Virus record (IMG/VR): IMGVR_UViG_3300034374_009547
Direction: 5' to 3' (one strand)
DNA length: 64,000 nt
DNA from: a virus
Taxonomy: Duplodnaviria > Caudoviricetes
Part shown: positions 8,594 through 54,271 of the stretch, in pieces
Numbering within the stretch: position 1 is the stretch's first letter
How the letters are laid out: each line of letters opens with the position of its first letter
The notes under the pieces: generated by a model
What the model was told of the DNA's origin: nothing
The model's input: the letters and a program-made list of their open reading frames with translations, nothing else
Databases searched by the model: none
Translations under genes and position numbers: made by a program

Positions 8594-9277
8594 ATGAATA
8601 CTAGAACAATGACCAGTGCTTACTATGACGAAGCACTGAGAACTTTTATGCTTGCACTATATAACTACACTGCAATTGGTTTGGCAATTACAGGTTTAGT
8701 TGCATATCTAACTTATGCAAGTGGATTAATGTACGCAATGGGTCCACTAATGTGGGTAGCAGTGTTTGCTCCACTTGGTATGATCCTATACTATAGTTTT
8801 GCTGGACAAAACTGGAGTTTTGAAACTACAAGAACTTTCTACTATGTGTTTACAGCAGTAATGGGCATTAGTATGAGCACAATCTTTGCTGTATATACAG
8901 CAATCAGTATTGCTCAAGTGTTCTTTATTACAGCAGCAACATTTGCTAGTGCTAGTTTGTATGGTTATACTACCAAAAAAGACCTAAGCGGTTGGGGTAG
9001 TTTTTTACTAGTTGGATTGATTGGTATTATCATTGCAAGCATTGTTAATATCTTTTTGCAAAGCAGTGCTCTTGAATTTGCAGTAAGTGTGATTGGGGTG
9101 TTGATTTTTACAGGTCTTACAGCATACGATACACAACATGCTAAAAGTATGTTTGTAAGTGGACGTATGAACGCAAAAGAAACAGCCAAATTTGCTATTC
9201 AAATGGCACTGAGCTTGTATCTAAACTTTATCAATCTATTCCAAATGTTGCTGAGTTTACTCGGCAATAGAGAATGA
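8594..9277 (+). CDS. Bax inhibitor-1 / YccA family membrane protein
   Basis: About 7 hydrophobic segments; YGYTTKKDLSGWG, GLTAYDTQ and ALSLYLNFINLF motifs of the BI-1/YccA family. Confidence 0.85.
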   Translation: MNTRTMTSAYYDEALRTFMLALYNYTAIGLAITGLVAYLTYASGLMYAMGPLMWVAVFAPLGMILYYSFAGQNWSFETTRTFYYVFTAVMGISMSTIFAVYTAISIAQVFFITAATFASASLYGYTTKKDLSGWGSFLLVGLIGIIIASIVNIFLQSSALEFAVSVIGVLIFTGLTAYDTQHAKSMFVSGRMNAKETAKFAIQMALSLYLNFINLFQMLLSLLGNRE

Positions 9278-9888
9278 TTCTTTGTGACGTAGAATTTGAA
9301 CTACCAAAAGGCCCTGTCGGTGTGTTGTGCAGCGGCGGGGCTGATAGTTCATTAATCCTTTATTTGTTAATGAAACATAGTAATCAACCATTACATGTCC
9401 TTACAATGGCAAATAGAAAAAAACATTTTACTAATGCTATAGTTGTAAGTAAAGTAATAGATTGGTGTATGAAAAAAACAAACAATAATAATATTGTACA
9501 TACCGTAAAATACGTCGATGAGCAAACAGACGAGCAATTACAACAACTAACAATTCAACATCTAAAAGTATTCCGTACAATTTACATTGGTGATACTTGT
9601 TATCCACCAGAAGATATACATGATGAATTTGTACAAAATACAGGCGATAGTTTTAATAAACTAGAAGATAGAAAACCAAATAAAAATCGTGCAACAAAAG
9701 CAGGGCCAATATATGTTCCATTTACAAATTATAACAAAAGAAAAATAGCCGAAATATACGAACATCTTGATATTATGGAACTTGCAGATATTACTCGCAG
9801 TTGCGAAACATTTGAAGATATTGGTACAAAACATTGTGGTAACTGCTGGTGGTGCAAAGAAAGAGAATGGGCTTTTGATAAACGGTAA
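9274..9888 (+). CDS. queC: QueC-like PP-loop ATPase (7-cyano-7-deazaguanine synthase-like)
   Basis: VLCSGGADSS PP-loop and TRSCE...HCGNCWWCKER zinc motif; short and divergent. Confidence 0.6.
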   Translation: MILCDVEFELPKGPVGVLCSGGADSSLILYLLMKHSNQPLHVLTMANRKKHFTNAIVVSKVIDWCMKKTNNNNIVHTVKYVDEQTDEQLQQLTIQHLKVFRTIYIGDTCYPPEDIHDEFVQNTGDSFNKLEDRKPNKNRATKAGPIYVPFTNYNKRKIAEIYEHLDIMELADITRSCETFEDIGTKHCGNCWWCKEREWAFDKR

Positions 9889-10732
9889 AATTATTAATGA
9901 CAAAATTCTAGTGCATACAGCTCAATGGTATATTACTCATACATGTAATATATCATGTAATCATTGTTTGAGTTACAATAACTATAATATTAAAGGACAT
10001 GACAATTTTAAAGAAAATTTAATTTATGCTAAAGAATGGGCTAAAAAAATTATAATCAAAGACTTTACAATTGTAGGAGGCGAAGTTTTTACACACAATA
10101 ACCTTAATCAATGGGTTTTTGGCTTACGAGAAATTTTTCCTGACATAGAAAATTTTAAAGTTCTTACCAACGGTACCGTACTATCAAAGTATGCAGATAG
10201 CTTTGATAAATGGTTTGAAAAAAATATAATTATTGAAATTAGTTTTAAAAGAGAAGAAGATTATAATGATCTTTACGAAATTTTAAAAAGATATAAAAAT
10301 GTTGAACGTAAAATTCACTTTATGTATGATGAGGCAATCTATATAAACGGTAAACTTTGTTTCTTAGTTGAATATTGTGACTCGCATATGCAATGGGGAA
10401 TAAAAGAATACAAAGAAGGATTTTATGAATTTTATAATAGTAATAGCGAAGAAGCTCATAAATCATGCTGGCAAAAAGATTGTCACTATTTTTACAAAGG
10501 CAATTTATACAAATGCGGAACTATTGTTGGTGCTCAAGAATTTGTAAAAAACTTTCCTGTAAAAGAGCATATTAAAAGTAGAATAAATGGATATGCACCT
10601 TTGAAATATGATCATCCTGAGTTACTTGAACAAATTAAATCTTTAAATAATCATATTCCACAATGCTCATTGTGTCCATCTATTGCTTTAGATGATAAAT
10701 TAGTTGTTGACAATAAGAAAATATTGCCGTAA
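9875..10732 (+). CDS. Radical SAM protein with C-terminal Cys-rich (twitch/SPASM-like) region
   Basis: CNISCNHC (CxxxCxxC), GGE motif, later C-x4-C...KC...CxxC. Start uncertain (track gives 9767; TTG at 9875 removes most of the overlap). Confidence 0.75.
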   Translation: MINGKIINDKILVHTAQWYITHTCNISCNHCLSYNNYNIKGHDNFKENLIYAKEWAKKIIIKDFTIVGGEVFTHNNLNQWVFGLREIFPDIENFKVLTNGTVLSKYADSFDKWFEKNIIIEISFKREEDYNDLYEILKRYKNVERKIHFMYDEAIYINGKLCFLVEYCDSHMQWGIKEYKEGFYEFYNSNSEEAHKSCWQKDCHYFYKGNLYKCGTIVGAQEFVKNFPVKEHIKSRINGYAPLKYDHPELLEQIKSLNNHIPQCSLCPSIALDDKLVVDNKKILP

Positions 10733-39060: not shown

Positions 39061-39803
39061 TTATAGCAGGTCACGGATTTGTAGGTAAAGCATATGAATG
39101 GTTGTTTGCTAACTATAGAAGAAAAATAGAAATACATGATCCTGCAAAAGGGTTTACAGCTGACTTTGATAATACAAGTGCAGTAATTATTTGTGTACCA
39201 ACACCGCAAGCAGATGACGGCTCTTGTGATATGAGTGCAGTTTATGATGTAGTAGGCAAGTGTAGACCAGATACACCAATAATGATCAAAAGTACAATTA
39301 GTTTGCAAGGATGGTATGAACTTAAAGACCGCTTTCCAAATCATAAATTTTGTTTTAGCCCAGAGTTTTTAAGAGCAGCAAATCACATGATTGATATTAA
39401 AAATATGGATACCTTTATTATTAGTGGTGATACAGAATACTGGCGTGATCAAATTAGTTACAACTGGCCACATATGCGTATACGCACCGTAAAACCTGAA
39501 GAAGCTATAGCAATAAAATATTTTAGAAATGCTTTTTTAGCAACTAAAGTTAGTTTTTTCAATGAAATATATGACTTTTGTTCAGCATACGATATCAGCT
39601 TTGATCAAGTTCAAGGCGGTATTATAGCAGATAAAAGAATAGGAGAAAGTCATAGTTACGTATGGCCAGATGAAGGGGTAAGAGGTTGGGGAGGATATTG
39701 TTTTCCAAAAGACACCAGTGCTCTATTAAAAATGGCAGCAGAAAAAAATATTAATCTAAATACACTAGAAGCAGCAGTTGAATACAATAAAAAAATACGT
39801 TGA
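39057..39803 (+). CDS. UDP-glucose/GDP-mannose 6-dehydrogenase-like protein lacking the C-terminal domain
   Basis: GHGFVG, CVPTP, IKST, SPEFLR, K...NAFLA.KVSF.NE and GGYCFPKD motifs. Confidence 0.85.
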   Translation: MIIAGHGFVGKAYEWLFANYRRKIEIHDPAKGFTADFDNTSAVIICVPTPQADDGSCDMSAVYDVVGKCRPDTPIMIKSTISLQGWYELKDRFPNHKFCFSPEFLRAANHMIDIKNMDTFIISGDTEYWRDQISYNWPHMRIRTVKPEEAIAIKYFRNAFLATKVSFFNEIYDFCSAYDISFDQVQGGIIADKRIGESHSYVWPDEGVRGWGGYCFPKDTSALLKMAAEKNINLNTLEAAVEYNKKIR

Positions 39804-39828
39804 CAATCAACAACTTAGGCAGTATAAT
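39800..39828 (+). promoter_or_regulatory. Consensus sigma70 promoter TTGACA-N17-TATAAT
   Basis: Perfect consensus; heads the clamp-dpdA block. Confidence 0.8.
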
Positions 39829-42359: not shown

Positions 42360-42516
42360 AAAGAAAGTTAGATTAGAACATATTGATATGGCTTTAGAAG
42401 AACTTGATAAAATCATTGACACAATGAATAAAAAAGGCTATAGTAATGAAAAAATAAACGAGTTTAACAAACAACGTTGGAATCTTTGGAATGAAAGGTA
42501 TAGGCTTAAACAATGA
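42346..42516 (+). CDS. Small hypothetical protein (56 aa, not in track)
   Basis: Open frame; ATGA overlap with the next gene. Confidence 0.5.
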   Translation: MDEHEKKVRLEHIDMALEELDKIIDTMNKKGYSNEKINEFNKQRWNLWNERYRLKQ

Positions 42517-43019
42517 AACGAGATTATGATAGTGGTGTAACATCAGAAGGTGTAAACTTTTTTGTTGGTACTGAAGTAGAACACACACCGCAGTTTGGTA
42601 AGAAAACACTTTTTGTTGTAGGTGTACAAAACTTTGAAGAAATTGTAGAACACGCAGATAAAGCGGGTGTAGATCATATTTACTTGGGTGCTAATATGAG
42701 TTGGAGCAAGGACGAGTCTTGGGACGAAATGGTATTTCCATTGTTGAAAGACGGTTACTGGGTAACACTAGATTTTCCTGTGCAAGACATTGAATGGGTG
42801 CTAGAGTGCGGCTATACAGAATACAATCGCTTTATTCCAATGATTAGCGTAAAAATGCCTTACATTGATCTACTAGGTTACAATGCTTGTTTAAAAGTAG
42901 ATGACAAGGATTTTGATGCTACTAATCCAGGTGTATGGGTACATCGTGTACATGATTTAAAAGATAAATCAAAGTTTACAGATTGGTCTAAATACACCAC
43001 AGATGAAATTATCGCTTGA
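42513..43019 (+). CDS. Conserved hypothetical protein in the dpdA locus
   Basis: G.EVEHTP.FG..TLFV and NPGVWVH motifs. Confidence 0.65.
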   Translation: MKRDYDSGVTSEGVNFFVGTEVEHTPQFGKKTLFVVGVQNFEEIVEHADKAGVDHIYLGANMSWSKDESWDEMVFPLLKDGYWVTLDFPVQDIEWVLECGYTEYNRFIPMISVKMPYIDLLGYNACLKVDDKDFDATNPGVWVHRVHDLKDKSKFTDWSKYTTDEIIA

Positions 43020-43044
43020 CAATATGCAACAAGAACGTTATTAT
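43016..43044 (+). promoter_or_regulatory. Sigma70-like promoter TTGACA-N17-TATTAT
   Basis: Exact spacing; overlaps the annotated start of the QueD-like ORF, so the true start may lie downstream. Confidence 0.55.
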
Positions 43045-43473
43045 GAATATATGAAACGGCGCAACAGAGAAGAGGACGCTAAATTGAACGCATTAGAAAA
43101 TGCAAAACGCAGTATTTGGGTAACTTTTACAAAAGAAGGTATCCACAAGTATCCAGCAGCACTGGAAGATCCAGCACTGGCAACAGGTGATGAATATGAT
43201 GTAAGTTTCTTAGGTTATCCACATCGTCATATGTTCCATTTTAAAGTGCAAATTCAAGTTACACACAATGACCGTGACATTGAATTTATCCAGTTCAAAC
43301 GATGGCTGGAATCATTGTATGCAGGAGACATCTTGCAACTAGATTACAAGAGCTGTGAAATGATTGCAGACGACTTGTACACACAAATTAACAGCAAATA
43401 TCCCGGCCGGTTTGTTGTTATTGATGTCGCCGAAGATGGCGAAAACGGCTGTCAAATTGTATACCCAGCATAA
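43024..43473 (+). CDS. queD: QueD/PTPS-like T-fold protein (putative 6-carboxytetrahydropterin synthase)
   Basis: H...HRHMFHFKV zinc-His pattern and SCE(M) motif; location in the folE/queE/dpdA locus; divergent. Confidence 0.55.
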   Translation: MQQERYYEYMKRRNREEDAKLNALENAKRSIWVTFTKEGIHKYPAALEDPALATGDEYDVSFLGYPHRHMFHFKVQIQVTHNDRDIEFIQFKRWLESLYAGDILQLDYKSCEMIADDLYTQINSKYPGRFVVIDVAEDGENGCQIVYPA

Positions 43474-43487
43474 AGGAAAAAGGTATA

Positions 43488-43676
43488 ATGACTATCTCTA
43501 ATCCGGTAGTAAATAAAATTTTTAACGATCTTGAGGAACTGCACGACTTCTGCAGAACTGAAGGTTATCCATTTAACCAAGCAGATTTGTATAAGAAAGA
43601 TGCTCGTGTATGGCAGGCATTTCAAAAATACAAAAATTGGGTCCGTGCTAGAAATCGCACCAAAGGACGCAAATAA
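43488..43676 (+). CDS. Hypothetical protein
   Basis: AAGGA RBS; TAATG coupling. Confidence 0.6.
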   Translation: MTISNPVVNKIFNDLEELHDFCRTEGYPFNQADLYKKDARVWQAFQKYKNWVRARNRTKGRK

Positions 43677-44851
43677 TGCGTAAGCTGTTTTACATGGGCT
43701 TAGAGCCCTATGAAGGCAGGTACACATTACAACTTGAAGAATGGAGTAGGCGTGCGTTTCAACGCCGCTCCATTGATTGGGTTAATGTACCTGGTACAAC
43801 TATTGACAATACAAAAGCAATTCAAGTAGGCCAAGTGTTAGATGCACATGGCCGTTCCTACTTTGCAATGTCGCAAATGATGAACTTGGTGCAAATGATG
43901 CGTAACGGTGAAGTTACAGGCGAAGATGTAGTTTTCTTTGAAGATATGTTCCAGCCTGGTATGGAATCGCTTCCGTATATTATGGATCAGATTCCCACTG
44001 AGCAACGTCCACAGGTTTGGATTCGTTGTTTAGCACAAGCAGTTGATCCAGATGACTTTGTGCATGTTTGGGGCATGGGCAAGTGGATGAGTTTGTATGA
44101 AGAAATGTGCAACGAGTTTGTTACTGGCGTACTAGCAAGTAATGAAGAAATGGTTGCACACATGAAGATTGCAAACTGGAAGGCTCCTATCTACAATGTT
44201 TCAGGTCTTGCATTTGATAAAACAGAAGTTGCTCTACGTGTTGGCGAGATCAACACTTGGGAAAAGCGTGACAATCGTGTGGTATTTGCAGCACGTTTTG
44301 ATCAAGAAAAACAACCAGACTTTTATATGGATTTGATTGAAGAATGGTATGGTACACCAGGTACAGCAGACGTGGAGTTTTGCATTGTGCAAGGTGGCCC
44401 GCTACGCAGTAACAATCAAAAGTATATTGATCGTGCCCGCAAAATGGAAGAGCGTGGACAACTGGTAATTTATGAAAACTTGAAAAAGAATCATTACTAT
44501 GATATTGTAAATCGTAGTAAAGTTTTGTTCAATTGTGCTTTGCAGGATTGGACAAGCAATACGGTAAGCGAAGCAGATGCATTAGGATGCAATGTGTTGT
44601 TTCCAGCGTATCGCAGTTTTCCAGAAATCTTTGCTAATGATCATACACGCATGTATGTGCCTTGGAGTGTTGAAGATGCAATGAACAAGTTAACGCCATT
44701 ACTAAAAAGCGCACATAAAGACTTAGGTAAGATAAGCGATTGGACTAGTGCAACTATTGATCGTTATATTGATATTATGCAAGGTAACGGTGAACAATGG
44801 CGTAGAGATAGCAATCGTTATCGTGATTATGTTGCGGAGACAAAATATTGA
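43676..44851 (+). CDS. GT-B fold glycosyltransferase
   Basis: FAARFDQEKQP, NCALQDWTSNTVSEADALGCNVLFP (E-x7-E-like region replaced by D-x7-E). Confidence 0.75.
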   Translation: MRKLFYMGLEPYEGRYTLQLEEWSRRAFQRRSIDWVNVPGTTIDNTKAIQVGQVLDAHGRSYFAMSQMMNLVQMMRNGEVTGEDVVFFEDMFQPGMESLPYIMDQIPTEQRPQVWIRCLAQAVDPDDFVHVWGMGKWMSLYEEMCNEFVTGVLASNEEMVAHMKIANWKAPIYNVSGLAFDKTEVALRVGEINTWEKRDNRVVFAARFDQEKQPDFYMDLIEEWYGTPGTADVEFCIVQGGPLRSNNQKYIDRARKMEERGQLVIYENLKKNHYYDIVNRSKVLFNCALQDWTSNTVSEADALGCNVLFPAYRSFPEIFANDHTRMYVPWSVEDAMNKLTPLLKSAHKDLGKISDWTSATIDRYIDIMQGNGEQWRRDSNRYRDYVAETKY

Positions 44852-45714
44852 GAGTATTGGTCACAGGTGCTACAGGTTATATTGGCAGTCATGTTTGTAA
44901 ACTACTAAAAGAGCATGGACATCACGTTACTGCTTGGGATATAAATATTCATGGTGAATACAATGACATCATGGCATATTGTGACCATTATTCTTCTTAT
45001 GATATAACTAAGTTTGTACATGGTGGCTTTGACGCCGTTGTACACTTAGCAGGACGCAGTGTAGTACCTGATAGTTTACGTGAACCTACAGAATATTATC
45101 GTGTAAACGTGATGGGTACTGCAAACTTGTTAGATCGTGTCGAAACACCACACATACTATTTGCAAGCACTAGTAGTGCTTGGGAAATGGCATCACCATA
45201 TGCACGTAGCAAAGTGGCAGCAGAAGATGTAATTAAGGAGAAAGCCAATGGATACACTATCTTTAGATTTTTTAACGTATCTGGTACTGACGGGCATAAT
45301 CGTCAACTGGGCGTTCCTACCCATCTTATTCGTGTTGCTGCTATGGTGGCTGCTGAAAAACTACCCAACATTAAGATCTTTGGTACGGACTATGATACTA
45401 GGGATGGTACTTGTATTCGTGATTATATTCATGTTGTTGATTTGGCTCGTGCCATTGTCAACGGAGTGGAACGAGGTCCAGCCAATACGGACTATGAGTG
45501 CCTTGGTAGCAACGTAGGTTATAGTGTACGAGAAGTAATCAGTACTATGGAGCAAGTTACTGGTAAAAAGTTAAATATCATTGAAGCAGAACGCAGAGAA
45601 GGCGATGCTGTTGCCAGTGTTGTAGACAACCTAAGTGATCTAGTTACACTGGAAAAAAGCATCGAAGATATGTGTTTGGATCAATACAAATTGGAAGTTG
45701 GTAAAAATGGATGA
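44848..45714 (+). CDS. galE: UDP-glucose 4-epimerase (extended SDR)
   Basis: TGATGYIG, YARSK, FRFFNV, GTCIRDYIHVVDLA. Confidence 0.9.
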   Translation: MRVLVTGATGYIGSHVCKLLKEHGHHVTAWDINIHGEYNDIMAYCDHYSSYDITKFVHGGFDAVVHLAGRSVVPDSLREPTEYYRVNVMGTANLLDRVETPHILFASTSSAWEMASPYARSKVAAEDVIKEKANGYTIFRFFNVSGTDGHNRQLGVPTHLIRVAAMVAAEKLPNIKIFGTDYDTRDGTCIRDYIHVVDLARAIVNGVERGPANTDYECLGSNVGYSVREVISTMEQVTGKKLNIIEAERREGDAVASVVDNLSDLVTLEKSIEDMCLDQYKLEVGKNG

Positions 45715-46277: not shown

Positions 46278-46758
46278 CATAGAACCTGTATGGAATATGG
46301 AACGCTATCGTGCGTTAGACTATAAACTAGACCATCATAAAGATACAAATTTAATACAAAAATATTTAGATGCAGGGCATAGTGCAGAGGCTATGACCCT
46401 GTATAACTATTTTGAACCAAATCCTATGCCACCAAGTATAGAATATATTTGCAGTTATTTTCCTACACTTAAAAACATTTCAATTGCAGTCAACCTATTT
46501 AAGCCAGGACAATATTTGCCTGTACATACAGATCTATATGGTGCATATAAAAAATATCATGGTTTGACAAACGAAACAATTTATAGATATATTGTTATGC
46601 TAGAAGATGGTGTAGAAGGACAAATGTCTGTAATTGGAAACAGAGTTTACACCATGTGGAAAGCAGGACAAATATACGGCTGGCAAGATGATGAAAAACA
46701 CACATTTTATAACTTGAGTACAAAGGATAGATATGCAGTCCAAATTACAGGCACATAA
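46258..46758 (+). CDS. 2OG-Fe(II) oxygenase / cupin-like protein
   Basis: PGQYLPVHTD (HxD), R.IVML, G...W...H distal His; GAGG RBS before ATG 46258. Confidence 0.65.
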   Translation: MTHFHFNIEPVWNMERYRALDYKLDHHKDTNLIQKYLDAGHSAEAMTLYNYFEPNPMPPSIEYICSYFPTLKNISIAVNLFKPGQYLPVHTDLYGAYKKYHGLTNETIYRYIVMLEDGVEGQMSVIGNRVYTMWKAGQIYGWQDDEKHTFYNLSTKDRYAVQITGT

Positions 46759-51462: not shown

Positions 51463-51673
51463 TATAGAACAATGGATTGAACGTATAAATGCAATGAAAG
51501 ATATGTGTATTCAAGCACATAGATTGCGTAATCAATACAGCGAACAAGTTGAAGAAACATACAACTATGCACAAGTAAAAGATATACTAGAGCAAGTGCA
51601 ATCAATGGCCGCCGGTATTGCAAATGAAAAAATAACCGAAATTAAAACAGAAATGGATGAATGGAAAAAATGA
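51452..51673 (+). CDS. Hypothetical protein
   Basis: GGAGG RBS plus TTG start. Confidence 0.55.
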   Translation: MQHSIEQWIERINAMKDMCIQAHRLRNQYSEQVEETYNYAQVKDILEQVQSMAAGIANEKITEIKTEMDEWKK

Positions 51674-52224
51674 AACGCAAACATTATACTTGGGACGATG
51701 TACATAAATGTGCTCACAAACTAGCACTGGAAATGTACAAAACTGGATTCAAACCAGATTATATTGTAGGACTCAACAGAGGCGGTCTGCCTATCAGTGT
51801 TGTGTTAAGCCATTTATTAGACTGCGACCATTATGCGCTAGATGTACGGTTACGTGATAACAAAGGAGAAACTGGACCTGAATCTAACTGCTGGATGGCA
51901 GAAGATGCGTTTGGGTATGTATCTCAAATTGATAGAGATGATGTTTGGAGTAAATCTACTAGCGATACTGCTAAGAAAAAGAAAATTTTAATTGTAGATG
52001 ATATCAACGATACTGGTGCTACATTTAAATGGATTAAAGAAGATTGGCAAGCAGGTTGTTTACCAGATAGTCCAAACTGGGATACCATTTGGAATCAAAA
52101 TGTTCGCTTTGCTGTAATGTGTGAAAAAACACATACCGAGTTTGATGGGGTTGACTATGTATGGCAAACCATAGATACAGGTGAAGAAGATACATGGATT
52201 GTGTTTCCATGGGAATATGATTAA
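51661..52224 (+). CDS. Type I phosphoribosyltransferase (xanthine/guanine PRT-like)
   Basis: VGLNRGG, ILIVDDINDTGAT PRPP-binding loop, WIVFPWE. Confidence 0.88.
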   Translation: MEKMKRKHYTWDDVHKCAHKLALEMYKTGFKPDYIVGLNRGGLPISVVLSHLLDCDHYALDVRLRDNKGETGPESNCWMAEDAFGYVSQIDRDDVWSKSTSDTAKKKKILIVDDINDTGATFKWIKEDWQAGCLPDSPNWDTIWNQNVRFAVMCEKTHTEFDGVDYVWQTIDTGEEDTWIVFPWEYD

Positions 52225-52646: not shown

Positions 52647-53378
52647 ATGACAGAAGAAGTAAAAGGACTTAATACTGACAATGTTGAGCCTGTAAAGATT
52701 AGTCAAGTAGTACGTGAAAGACTACAAAAAAACGGTGTTCGTTTTTATGCAAATGACAATATTAGTGAACATATTAGTGAATTTGAATTACAAGAGATTC
52801 AAAACGAATTAAAATACAAGTTCCAAGATGTACTAGATACACTTATTATTGATACAGAAAACGATCCAAACAGCATGGATACTGCAAATCGTTTGGCGAA
52901 GATGTATATTCATGAATTGATGCGTGGAAGGTATTATCCGCAGCCTAATGCAACTGCATTTCCTAATCATACAGATGATGCGTATGATGGTATGCTTGTT
53001 GTGCGTAGCGAACTTAAAAGTGTTTGTTCGCATCACCATCAACCAGTTACAGGTGTAGCATATATTGGTATTCTTGCTGCTGATAAACTTATTGGATTAA
53101 GCAAGTATACACGTATTGCACAATGGTGTGCTAGACGTGGCACACTACAAGAAGAACTTGCAATGGATATCTGTAAAGAAATAATGAAAGTTACAGGTGC
53201 TAAAGATTGTGGTGTTTATATTCAAGCAACACACGGTTGCTGTGAAAATAGAGGCATTATGGCACATAGTAGTTTAACACAAACAAGTGTACTAAAAGGT
53301 GCGTTTAAAACTGATCCTGGTACAAAGAAAGAATTTTTTGATAACATTAAATTACAACAGGAGTTTGCACCGCGATGA
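52647..53378 (+). CDS. folE: GTP cyclohydrolase I
   Basis: SVCSHHHQP, IGLSKY.R, QEEL, ATHGCCENRG. Confidence 0.95.
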   Translation: MTEEVKGLNTDNVEPVKISQVVRERLQKNGVRFYANDNISEHISEFELQEIQNELKYKFQDVLDTLIIDTENDPNSMDTANRLAKMYIHELMRGRYYPQPNATAFPNHTDDAYDGMLVVRSELKSVCSHHHQPVTGVAYIGILAADKLIGLSKYTRIAQWCARRGTLQEELAMDICKEIMKVTGAKDCGVYIQATHGCCENRGIMAHSSLTQTSVLKGAFKTDPGTKKEFFDNIKLQQEFAPR

Positions 53379-54271
53379 AACTAAGATATAGTGAAGCATT
53401 TTATAGTGTGCAAGGCGAAGGCAAATTTGTAGGAGTACCTAGTGTATTCCTACGCACCTTTGGTTGTAACTTTCGTTGTATGAATTTTGGTGTGGATAAA
53501 AGTGTTGGCAGTCGTTGGGAGCAACACGCAAAAGGTCAACGCTACAACGCAGAAGTAAAACAACTGCTAGATGACGGTGTTCATGAAACTACAAAAGAGT
53601 TTAATGATTTGCCTATTGTGCATACAGGCTGCGATACATATGCAAGTATCTATCCAGAATTTAAACACTTCAATATGCTTAAAAGCGTAGATGAAGTTGT
53701 AGAACACTTGTTGAGTTTGTTGCCGGAAGGCAAATGGACTATGGATAATGGACAAGATGTTCATCTTATCCTTACAGGCGGCGAGCCATTACTTGCTTGG
53801 CAACGGTTGTATGTCGAGCTGTTTGAACACCCAGGTATGCAGGATCTAAAAAATGTCACAATCGAAACCAACACTACACAGCATCTACACGATGACTTCT
53901 ACAACTATCTCAATGGTCACGAAAGAATTCAGCTCACTTTTAGCTGTTCTCCCAAACTATCCGTATCGGGCGAGTCTTGGGATGATGCTATTAAGCCTGA
54001 TGTTGCTCGTGAGTATTCCCTTGTTGATGGCAGCAATATGTATTTTAAGTTTGTTGTTGCTGATCAGAGTGATGTTGACGAAGTTGGTAGAGCAGTTGAT
54101 ACCTATCGTAAAGCGGGCGTGGATGTTCCTGTATATCTCATGCCGCTTGGGGGTAGGTCGGAAGAATACACTCTCAACGTACAAGAGGTGGCGAACCTCT
54201 GTATGGAACGAGGGTGGAGGTTCTCGCCAAGACTCCACATTAGCCTATTCGGAAATGCCTGGGGCACTTAA
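53375..54271 (+). CDS. queE: 7-carboxy-7-deazaguanine synthase (radical SAM)
   Basis: EAFYSVQGEG...VFLRTFGCNFRC...CDT, LTGGEP, IETN, SPK, PRLH. Confidence 0.92.
   Translation: MKLRYSEAFYSVQGEGKFVGVPSVFLRTFGCNFRCMNFGVDKSVGSRWEQHAKGQRYNAEVKQLLDDGVHETTKEFNDLPIVHTGCDTYASIYPEFKHFNMLKSVDEVVEHLLSLLPEGKWTMDNGQDVHLILTGGEPLLAWQRLYVELFEHPGMQDLKNVTIETNTTQHLHDDFYNYLNGHERIQLTFSCSPKLSVSGESWDDAIKPDVAREYSLVDGSNMYFKFVVADQSDVDEVGRAVDTYRKAGVDVPVYLMPLGGRSEEYTLNVQEVANLCMERGWRFSPRLHISLFGNAWGT

Follow-up and report, generated by a model that had tools for sequence, protein, structure and literature searches.

A GT4-like glycosyltransferase and a GalE-type epimerase as predicted tailoring genes of a phage 7-deazaguanine DNA-modification module

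What would a glycosyltransferase do among the genes for a modified DNA base? The question is raised by a stretch of 64,000 nucleotides (the window) of IMG/VR virus record IMGVR_UViG_3300034374_009547 (Duplodnaviria; Caudoviricetes), a 113.7-kb record that is estimated to be about 32% complete and reads nearly all on the + strand. An initial annotation had described a queD-like gene, a small open reading frame (ORF), a GT-B glycosyltransferase (GT) gene and galE as running together with TAATG and TTGA coupling, and had proposed that they add galactose (Gal) or N-acetylgalactosamine (GalNAc) to a deazaguanine or its hydroxylated derivative in DNA. The run and its junctions were seen as described: positions 43003-45714 hold four coupled + strand ORFs of 156, 62, 391 and 288 amino acids (aa), the stop codon of the 62-aa ORF overlaps the GT start in TAATG (43674-43678), and the GT stop overlaps the GalE start in TTGA (44848-44851). 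Sequence and synteny show that GT and GalE belong, as predicted tailoring genes, to a module by which phages modify DNA with 7-deazaguanine, and we lean, by a small measure, to the reading that through them this module gives glycosylated 7-deazaguanine in virion DNA.

The queD-like ORF was rightly taken for a relative of QueD; it is not QueD itself, since by homology it is the already named DpdL, for which 7-carboxy-7-deazaguanine (CDG) decarboxylase activity is proposed only. Cui, Hutinet et al. (2023; PMC10516641) described DpdL as a QueD paralogue in which CxxxHGH has turned into LxxxHRHxF, and reported that it occurs in phages that have DpdA, FolE, QueD and QueE and lack QueC. The same authors proposed, as yet unproven, that it converts CDG to 7-deazaguanine by decarboxylation, and modelled it as working on the free base; a literature search on "DpdL" gave this as the sole relevant paper. 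The motif of the window protein, LGYPHRHMF, fits LxxxHRHxF and aligns with the HRH of phiST, ACP17 and 16 others, whereas true QueDs in the same alignment retain C..xHGY at this place. There was no Pfam PTPS match, and the match to phrog_17812 was at 6.5e-35. With tblastn, the protein was 36% identical to phiST gp040 (CGPG_00067; 3e-11) and 54% identical to ACP17 ASD50405 (1e-34), in an alignment that spans the whole core. The true QueD is encoded about 55 kb upstream, outside the window; the genome has DpdA, FolE, QueE and QueD. Directly after that QueD, also upstream of the window, comes a 267-aa protein with a weak Glyco_transf_8 match (L005:7162-7965; G000:C1:35162-35965). In Vibrio phage Bakedbeans gp176 (L011:6221-7372), DpdL forms the C-terminus after a domain of about 260 aa without assignment, and no GT is nearby.

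The 518-aa DpdA carries its TGT signature at residue 100, is 35% identical to PA5oct QCG76197, and was matched at 5e-19 by a profile of the BUDD/ACP17 DpdA type, which is annotated as queuine tRNA-ribosyltransferase in BUDD. Pfam TGT did not match it, and Pfam, PHROGs and NCBIfam searches gave nothing for this protein, for the 62-aa ORF (p62) or for p168, the conserved partner encoded just upstream of DpdL. We weighed a divergent, QueC-like PP-loop protein (9274-9888) as a possible member of the module and rejected it. It passes Pfam QueC (37.7 bits) and fails TIGR00364 (22.9 against 150 bits), in a genome of which about a third is at hand; because its 67 IMG/VR relatives have no GT, DpdL, DpdA or FolE nearby, we treated it as part of another module. 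It is coupled to a radical SAM protein, and the pair (9274-10732) seems to form a two-gene module of its own. In five complete genomes that bear the GT, no QueC scored over the cut-off.

The link of the GT to these genes, for which co-occurrence with dpdA had been set as the test, was strongly positive across unrelated phage lineages and is, on gene content and order, strong. Among the phages of GenBank, tblastn with the GT picked out those of Synechococcus (BUCT-ZZ01, 69% identity), Xanthomonas (BUDD and X1) and Acidovorax (ACP17), and profile-level comparison added Burkholderia phage BCSR5, Sinorhizobium phage Phosso and the Pseudomonas PA5oct group. The homologues of independent lineages are at 20-25% identity, and in all these phages DpdL lies within a few genes of the GT, with DpdA, FolE or QueE adjoining. 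The BUDD GT matches 18 GenBank phage records, and all 18 are among the 28 records that have DpdL. At the nucleotide level, the locus had no match among GenBank phages. In BUCT-ZZ01, a second GT4-like protein (UTS52035, 447 aa; L001:9010-10353), with a weak Glyco_trans_1_4 match, is encoded directly upstream of DpdA, which makes two GTs in that module; no GalE is adjacent there.

We then gathered IMG/VR loci with a family-specific GT motif and confirmed 385. The 78 closest have the core order pol-clamp-DpdA-p168-DpdL-(p62)-GT-GalE-FolE-PRTase-QueE (PRTase, phosphoribosyltransferase), and the remaining sugar and oxygenase cassettes are variably present or absent. DpdA is present in 72 of the 78, and GalE adjoins the GT in 67, immediately downstream in most; p62, which has no family match, is kept between DpdL and GT in 55/80 close loci. 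Seventy-nine diverse loci, whose GTs are 22-55% identical to that of BUDD, gave the same picture: in 73 of them FolE, QueD, QueE, DpdL or DpdA lies within 10 kb of the GT, with DpdL itself in 65. Seeding with DpdL instead found the GT in 63/80 IMG/VR loci, most of the others ending soon after DpdL. When prokaryotes (one genome per species, about 185,000 species) were scanned with two patterns derived from GT sequences of the BUDD-like subgroup, the GT turned up at only two loci, both on short contigs of metagenome-assembled genomes with DpdL and QueE. DpdL occurs without the GT in phiST, RHph_I1_18, Ahp1 and D479. The GT thus comes with the module and the module does not depend on the GT, as expected of an optional tailoring step such as the glucosylation of 5-hydroxymethylcytosine (hmC).

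Four of the six exceptions among the diverse loci (L106, L107, L110 and L111) share another arrangement, polA-p150-GT-298aa-Vut_1/YhhQ followed by the beta clamp (for example L110:9543-13758). Their polymerase is of family A, p150 is a relative of p168, and the transporter matches Vut_1/YhhQ at 5e-44, which we take to be the preQ0/preQ1/queuine transporter family. The 298-aa protein had no PDB or NCBIfam match, and its IDSGAFS, resembling the DSGGF of TGT, is the one hint of TGT kinship. No FolE, QueD, QueE or DpdL was seen in up to 10 kb of flank. These four loci look like a salvage version of the deazaguanine/GT system. In Xanthomonas phage PhiXhv-12 (L258:5618-8852, L259), a distant GT relative without the N-terminal motif described below stands in a trio with GlmS and a PIG-L-like deacetylase, and FolE and QueE (annotated "GTP 3',8-cyclase") are beside the polymerase genes, 110 kb away.

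An AlphaFold model of the GT, built from 41 diverse relatives (pLDDT 92, pTM 0.90), has the two Rossmann domains of GT-B. Retaining GT4 enzymes matched it at Z 23-27 over 300-348 residues, with sucrose-phosphate synthase, MshA, BshA, PimA and glycogen synthase among the fold matches. The D-x7-E that the initial annotation had remarked on, where many retaining GT-B enzymes have E-x7-E, was found at D291-x7-E299. Of 41 family representatives, 35 have E at position 291 and six have D, and E299 is invariant; D is thus a conservative variant, limited to the clade of the window. The other invariants of the family are E10, R15-Y16-T17, Q67, D90, D127, E142, R207 and E211-K212, and its N-terminal motif is LEPxExRYT. 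The family comprises 962 clusters at 50% identity (E < 1e-30), is found almost only in phages, and is a divergent branch of GT4-like enzymes; the BUDD homologue scores 45.7 bits against Pfam Glycos_transf_1 (PF00534), over the cut-off. The enzyme looks active from the invariance of R207, E211-K212 and E299 in the 41 representatives.

The neighbouring GalE matched Pfam Epimerase at 4.8e-37 and GalE structures of the PDB at 3e-37, and scored 202.5 bits against TIGR01179 galE, under the equivalog cut-off of 262.3. It is compact (288 aa against about 335, with internal deletions) and shows GATGYIG (GxxGxxG), an STSS segment with the catalytic Ser, and YARSK (YxxxK). Aligned with human GALE, it shows Ser in the place of human C307 and E. 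coli Y299, where a small residue admits UDP-N-acetylglucosamine (UDP-GlcNAc) and UDP-GalNAc. The proposal of a Gal or GalNAc donor fits this gatekeeper residue, and with GalE beside the GT the hexose transferred here is probably one of these two. GalE-like genes of the short-chain dehydrogenase/reductase type recur elsewhere in diverse modules. In PA5oct, two genes past DpdL, there is a 172-aa GalE-like N-terminal fragment (QCG76201; L009:7645-8163), which may be a truncated or split epimerase. As to the suggestion of a hydroxylated derivative as the acceptor, no hydroxylase is conserved with the GT, and the oxygenase island downstream is a variable insert.

A further sugar-related gene is found in the BUDD/BCSR5-like subgroup, where a protein with the motifs APH[LVI]DDE..IGC and D.HP.H adjoins the GT. 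Both motifs weakly match TT1542, a protein of the LmbE/PIG-L type, at its zinc site, and the assignment to LmbE/PIG-L is at motif level (Pfam E 0.002 over 20 residues; PDB 1uan E 0.047). Stand-alone copies are next to the GT in L095, L101, L102, L105, BUDD (USV40853) and BCSR5 (QRE00065), and in five loci, listed in the table, such a domain is fused to the N-terminus of DpdL. If the assignment is right, the BUDD-like subgroup repeats the logic of MshA/MshB, GlcNAc transfer followed by deacetylation, and the fusion physically joins sugar processing to a deazapurine-binding enzyme. No LmbE/PIG-L-like gene was found in the genome fragment of the window, BUCT-ZZ01, ACP17, Phosso or PA5oct.

The p168 family consists of acidic proteins of 150-190 aa with the motifs G.E.E, TLFVVG, HIYFGAN.S, K.DD and NPGVW. 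It was present in 65/78 close and 37/79 diverse GT loci, where it keeps company with DpdL and the GT or, in the YhhQ-type loci, with the GT alone, directly upstream. Its model (pLDDT 90) has no clear fold match, the best being QueE (Z 6.2 to three QueE structures in VIA). An alignment of p168 with QueE by hhalign gave a probability of 0.9%, so a QueE paralogue is a weak lead only. A profile search of PDB sequences gave nothing credible for p168, and the protein atlas had no usable match.

Put together, these genes suggest the following pathway. FolE, QueD and QueE would turn GTP into CDG, which DpdL, perhaps with p168, would process. The TGT-superfamily DpdA would exchange guanine in phage DNA for the modified base, and the GT4-like enzyme would move a hexose from a UDP-sugar to the deazaguanine-derived base, with GalE providing the donor as its 4-epimer (UDP-Gal or UDP-GalNAc). 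In virion DNA, the resulting glycosylated 7-deazaguanine would add protection from host nucleases. Whether the sugar would be transferred on DNA after insertion of the base or on the free base before it, we hold to be about equally probable. The acidic isoelectric point of the GT, its small-acceptor fold neighbours, the modelling of DpdL on the free base and the LmbE-like::DpdL fusion together tilt slightly to the free base, while the analogy with T4 favours DNA. The acceptor atom could speculatively be the carboxyl of CDG (as an ester), C7 (as a C-glycoside made with decarboxylation) or N2; a C7-linked glycoside arising as DpdL decarboxylates CDG is one possible form.

Several points weigh against this pathway. 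The acceptor atom is its weakest point, because C7 of 7-deazaguanine, the proposed product of DpdL, bears no obvious O or N that could take the sugar. The GT of the window scores 22.5 bits against Glycos_transf_1, where the gathering cut-off is 26.4. The GT family is acidic (median pI 5.5), the fold neighbours use small-molecule, lipid or glycan acceptors, and the top 50 matches listed by Foldseek or VIA include no DNA glucosyltransferase (T4 AGT, BGT). In the last two exceptional loci, L102 and L119, the available sequence, truncated or unresolved, has no deazaguanine gene, and the distant relatives in PhiXhv-12-like phages lie 110 kb from FolE and QueE. The case for GT function is one of guilt by association.

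Some of these points would equally fit a GT and GalE that act on a target other than nucleic acid (a virion protein, for instance, or the clamp, DpdA, or a precursor of the host envelope), with their place in the module reflecting shared early expression. The acidity of the GT, nearest folds that are not DNA enzymes, and the variable sugar cassettes that adjoin the locus would all be accommodated. Co-regulation alone, however, leaves the near-exclusive linkage across otherwise dissimilar lineages unexplained, as it does the fusion of a sugar-deacetylase-like domain to DpdL, and in the two-pattern scan of about 185,000 prokaryote genomes the family was absent except beside DpdL. We consider this alternative unlikely, if the best of the four that we weighed.

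Less probable again is that the GT glycosylates a pterin. FolE and DpdL, a T-fold QueD paralogue whose activity is proposed only, would then yield the pterin, and a GT4 enzyme like BGluT or PgtA would make the glycoside. Cyanobacteria make pterin glycosides, the host of the closest cultured relative is Synechococcus, and tetrahydrobiopterin glucosyltransferases (BGluT: 5zes, 5zer, 9v0l) are among the fold matches of the GT at Z 24-25. But at 10-12% identity these are tied with, or lower than, dozens of unrelated GT4 enzymes and do not stand above them. Phages that infect Pseudomonas, Xanthomonas, Acidovorax, Burkholderia and Sinorhizobium also have the GT, and there it is invariably accompanied by QueE and DpdA, enzymes without a role in pterin glycosides; the YhhQ-type loci have the GT without FolE or DpdL.

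T-even phage DNA glucosyltransferases are GT-B enzymes, and by that precedent the GT could glycosylate another DNA base, 5-hydroxymethyl-cytosine or -uracil, with the deazaguanine genes as mere neighbours. Phosso and PA5oct do encode a thymidylate-synthase-family protein, but BUCT-ZZ01, BUDD and ACP17, three of the five complete GT-bearing genomes, have no such gene, which makes a hydroxymethyl-pyrimidine acceptor unlikely there. The GT also tracks DpdL and DpdA and not any pyrimidine-modifying gene (TET/JBP-type routes were not searched for), and T4 AGT and BGT are missing from the top 50 structural matches; we give this alternative very little weight. As little goes to a GT-like protein that transfers no sugar and serves as a DpdA accessory or scaffold, or only binds or hydrolyzes UDP-sugar: phage DpdA proteins are not known to have a partner like DpdB in the bacterial system and the window GT is under the Pfam cut-off, but donor-site and E-x7-E residues are kept throughout the 41 representatives and a donor-supplying GalE is linked to the GT.

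The preferred reading, a sugar on 7-deazaguanine, can be compared with four known systems. The system of Cellulophaga phage phiST, a phage with proven dDG in its DNA (PMC10516641), likewise has FolE, QueD, QueE, an LxxxHRHxF DpdL and a TGT-superfamily DpdA and, like the window module, adjoins a DNA polymerase. It lacks a canonical QueC, and in the third or so of the window genome at hand none was seen that passes TIGR00364. Unlike the window it has no GT, p168 or GalE, and its DpdA3 is 259 aa long against 518 aa here. The alpha- and beta-glucosyltransferases of T4 serve as our working analogy, being phage GT-B enzymes that use a UDP-sugar in the last step of a DNA base modification. They have no detectable sequence relation to the window GT and are not in the top 50 fold matches listed; their acceptor is hmC, whereas the acceptor pathway here is that of a purine analogue, and the GT family here is acidic.

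In mycothiol and bacillithiol synthesis, the GT4 enzymes MshA and BshA transfer GlcNAc, and the LmbE/PIG-L enzymes MshB and BshB then deacetylate it. Both transferases rank with the best fold matches of the GT (Z 26), and a counterpart of MshB/BshB is seen in the BUDD-like subgroup, in the LmbE/PIG-L-like protein that adjoins the GT or is fused to DpdL. MshA and BshA differ in being only 8-12% identical to the GT, and the window locus has GalE where the LmbE-like gene would stand. In animal tRNA, QTMAN (GTDC1), a GT4-type enzyme, and QTGAL add mannose and galactose to queuosine. There too a 7-deazaguanine derivative in nucleic acid gets a sugar; Pfam scans of seven GT family members found no specific similarity to QTMAN/QTGAL. 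These enzymes use the cyclopentenediol hydroxyl of queuosine, and the phages discussed here have no route to queuosine.

The GT stands between DpdA/DpdL and FolE/QueE. On the 5' side of the run are a DNA polymerase, a variable sugar cassette (a cytidylyltransferase-like gene, phosphomannomutase and UDP-glucose dehydrogenase), the clamp, DpdA and p168. On the 3' side, a variable six-gene island is followed by a purine phosphoribosyltransferase-like gene, FolE and QueE. The phosphoribosyltransferase-like gene (NCBIfam xanthine PRTase, 1.3e-10, under the cut-off) adjoins FolE in 51/80 close loci, and its homologous position in BUCT-ZZ01 is annotated XGPRT. Its product may recycle guanine released by DpdA to GTP, the precursor of the pathway. 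Sigma-70-like matches of 11-12/12 occur across the module at 39800-39828, 42416-42444, 43016-43044 and 46564-46593; all are consensus matches only. The third falls within the p168/DpdL overlap, and the next of like quality is at 46564. If real, it would head a DpdL-p62-GT-GalE unit and, as DpdL has in-frame alternative starts at 43024 and 43051, would favour the start at 43051.

Table 1. Coordinates of the module genes and related features (window positions, except the fusions, which are given by IMG/VR locus)
Feature	Position	Strand	Basis
DpdA-type DNA guanine transglycosylase, 518 aa	40580..42136	+	TGT signature DSGGFQ, homology
p168, conserved partner	42513..43019	+	homologous to ACP17 ASD50402
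DpdL, QueD paralogue, 156 aa (activity proposed)	43003..43473	+	LGYPHRHMF motif, phrog_17812, homology
Sigma-70-like promoter match TTGACA-17-TATTAT, 11/12	43016..43044	+	consensus match only
62-aa ORF (p62)	43488..43676	+	kept between DpdL and GT
GT4-like retaining-type GT-B glycosyltransferase, 391 aa	43676..44851	+	fold, motif, Pfam
Compact GalE-type UDP-hexose 4-epimerase, 288 aa, TTG start	44848..45714	+	Pfam, PDB
Purine phosphoribosyltransferase-like protein	51661..52224	+	NCBIfam xanthine PRTase, sub-cut-off
FolE (GTP cyclohydrolase I)	52647..53378	+	homologous to annotated FolE of BUCT-ZZ01, BUDD, ACP17
QueE (CDG synthase)	53375..54271	+	38% identity to BUCT-ZZ01 QueE, 31% to BUDD QueE
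LmbE/PIG-L-like::DpdL fusions	L096:8648-9559, L098:4415-5161, L099:7544-8287, L100:7776-8516, L103:4449-5207		

The two main phage 7-deazaguanine papers do not mention a glycosyltransferase or a sugar, and literature searches on glycosylated deazaguanine gave nothing relevant. In PMC10516641, eight 7-deazaguanine derivatives are listed for phage DNA, none of them sugar-bearing, and "glycosyl" has no occurrence in the main text. That study expressed dpdA and dpdL of ACP17 in E. coli and obtained no dDG, and its authors raised the possibility that further enzymes are required. In ACP17, dpdA/dpdL are flanked by the GT and p168, and the omission of these two offers a concrete reason for the failed reconstitution. 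The DNA of PA5oct resists restriction enzymes that have G in their sites (PMC12191111).

The clade of the window phage appears to be very abundant and aquatic, and the cultured GT-bearing phages are PA5oct, ACP17, BUDD or X1, BCSR5, Phosso and BUCT-ZZ01. We propose, tentatively and with somewhat more doubt than belief, that the virion DNA of this aquatic clade and of PA5oct-, ACP17-, BUDD-, BCSR5- and Phosso-like phages carries glycosylated 7-deazaguanine made by this hitherto unrecognized GT4 family with DpdL and p168. To our knowledge, the only bases on which glycosylation of DNA has been described are hydroxylated or hydroxymethylated pyrimidines, and glycosylated 7-deazaguanine would be the first sugar-bearing purine analogue in natural DNA that we know of.

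Taken together, these genes form a variant on the Dpd systems known from phages, and their predicted product, glycosylated 7-deazaguanine, is undescribed. That a GT is conserved within modules of the DpdL type suggests a new class of purine hypermodification, and the module is widespread, with no fewer than 385 loci in IMG/VR and 962 clusters of proteins at 50% identity. This bears on the restriction and CRISPR resistance of phages that are therapeutic candidates, such as PA5oct, and on sequencing artefacts in aquatic viromes, and the GT is a possible new DNA-tagging enzyme.

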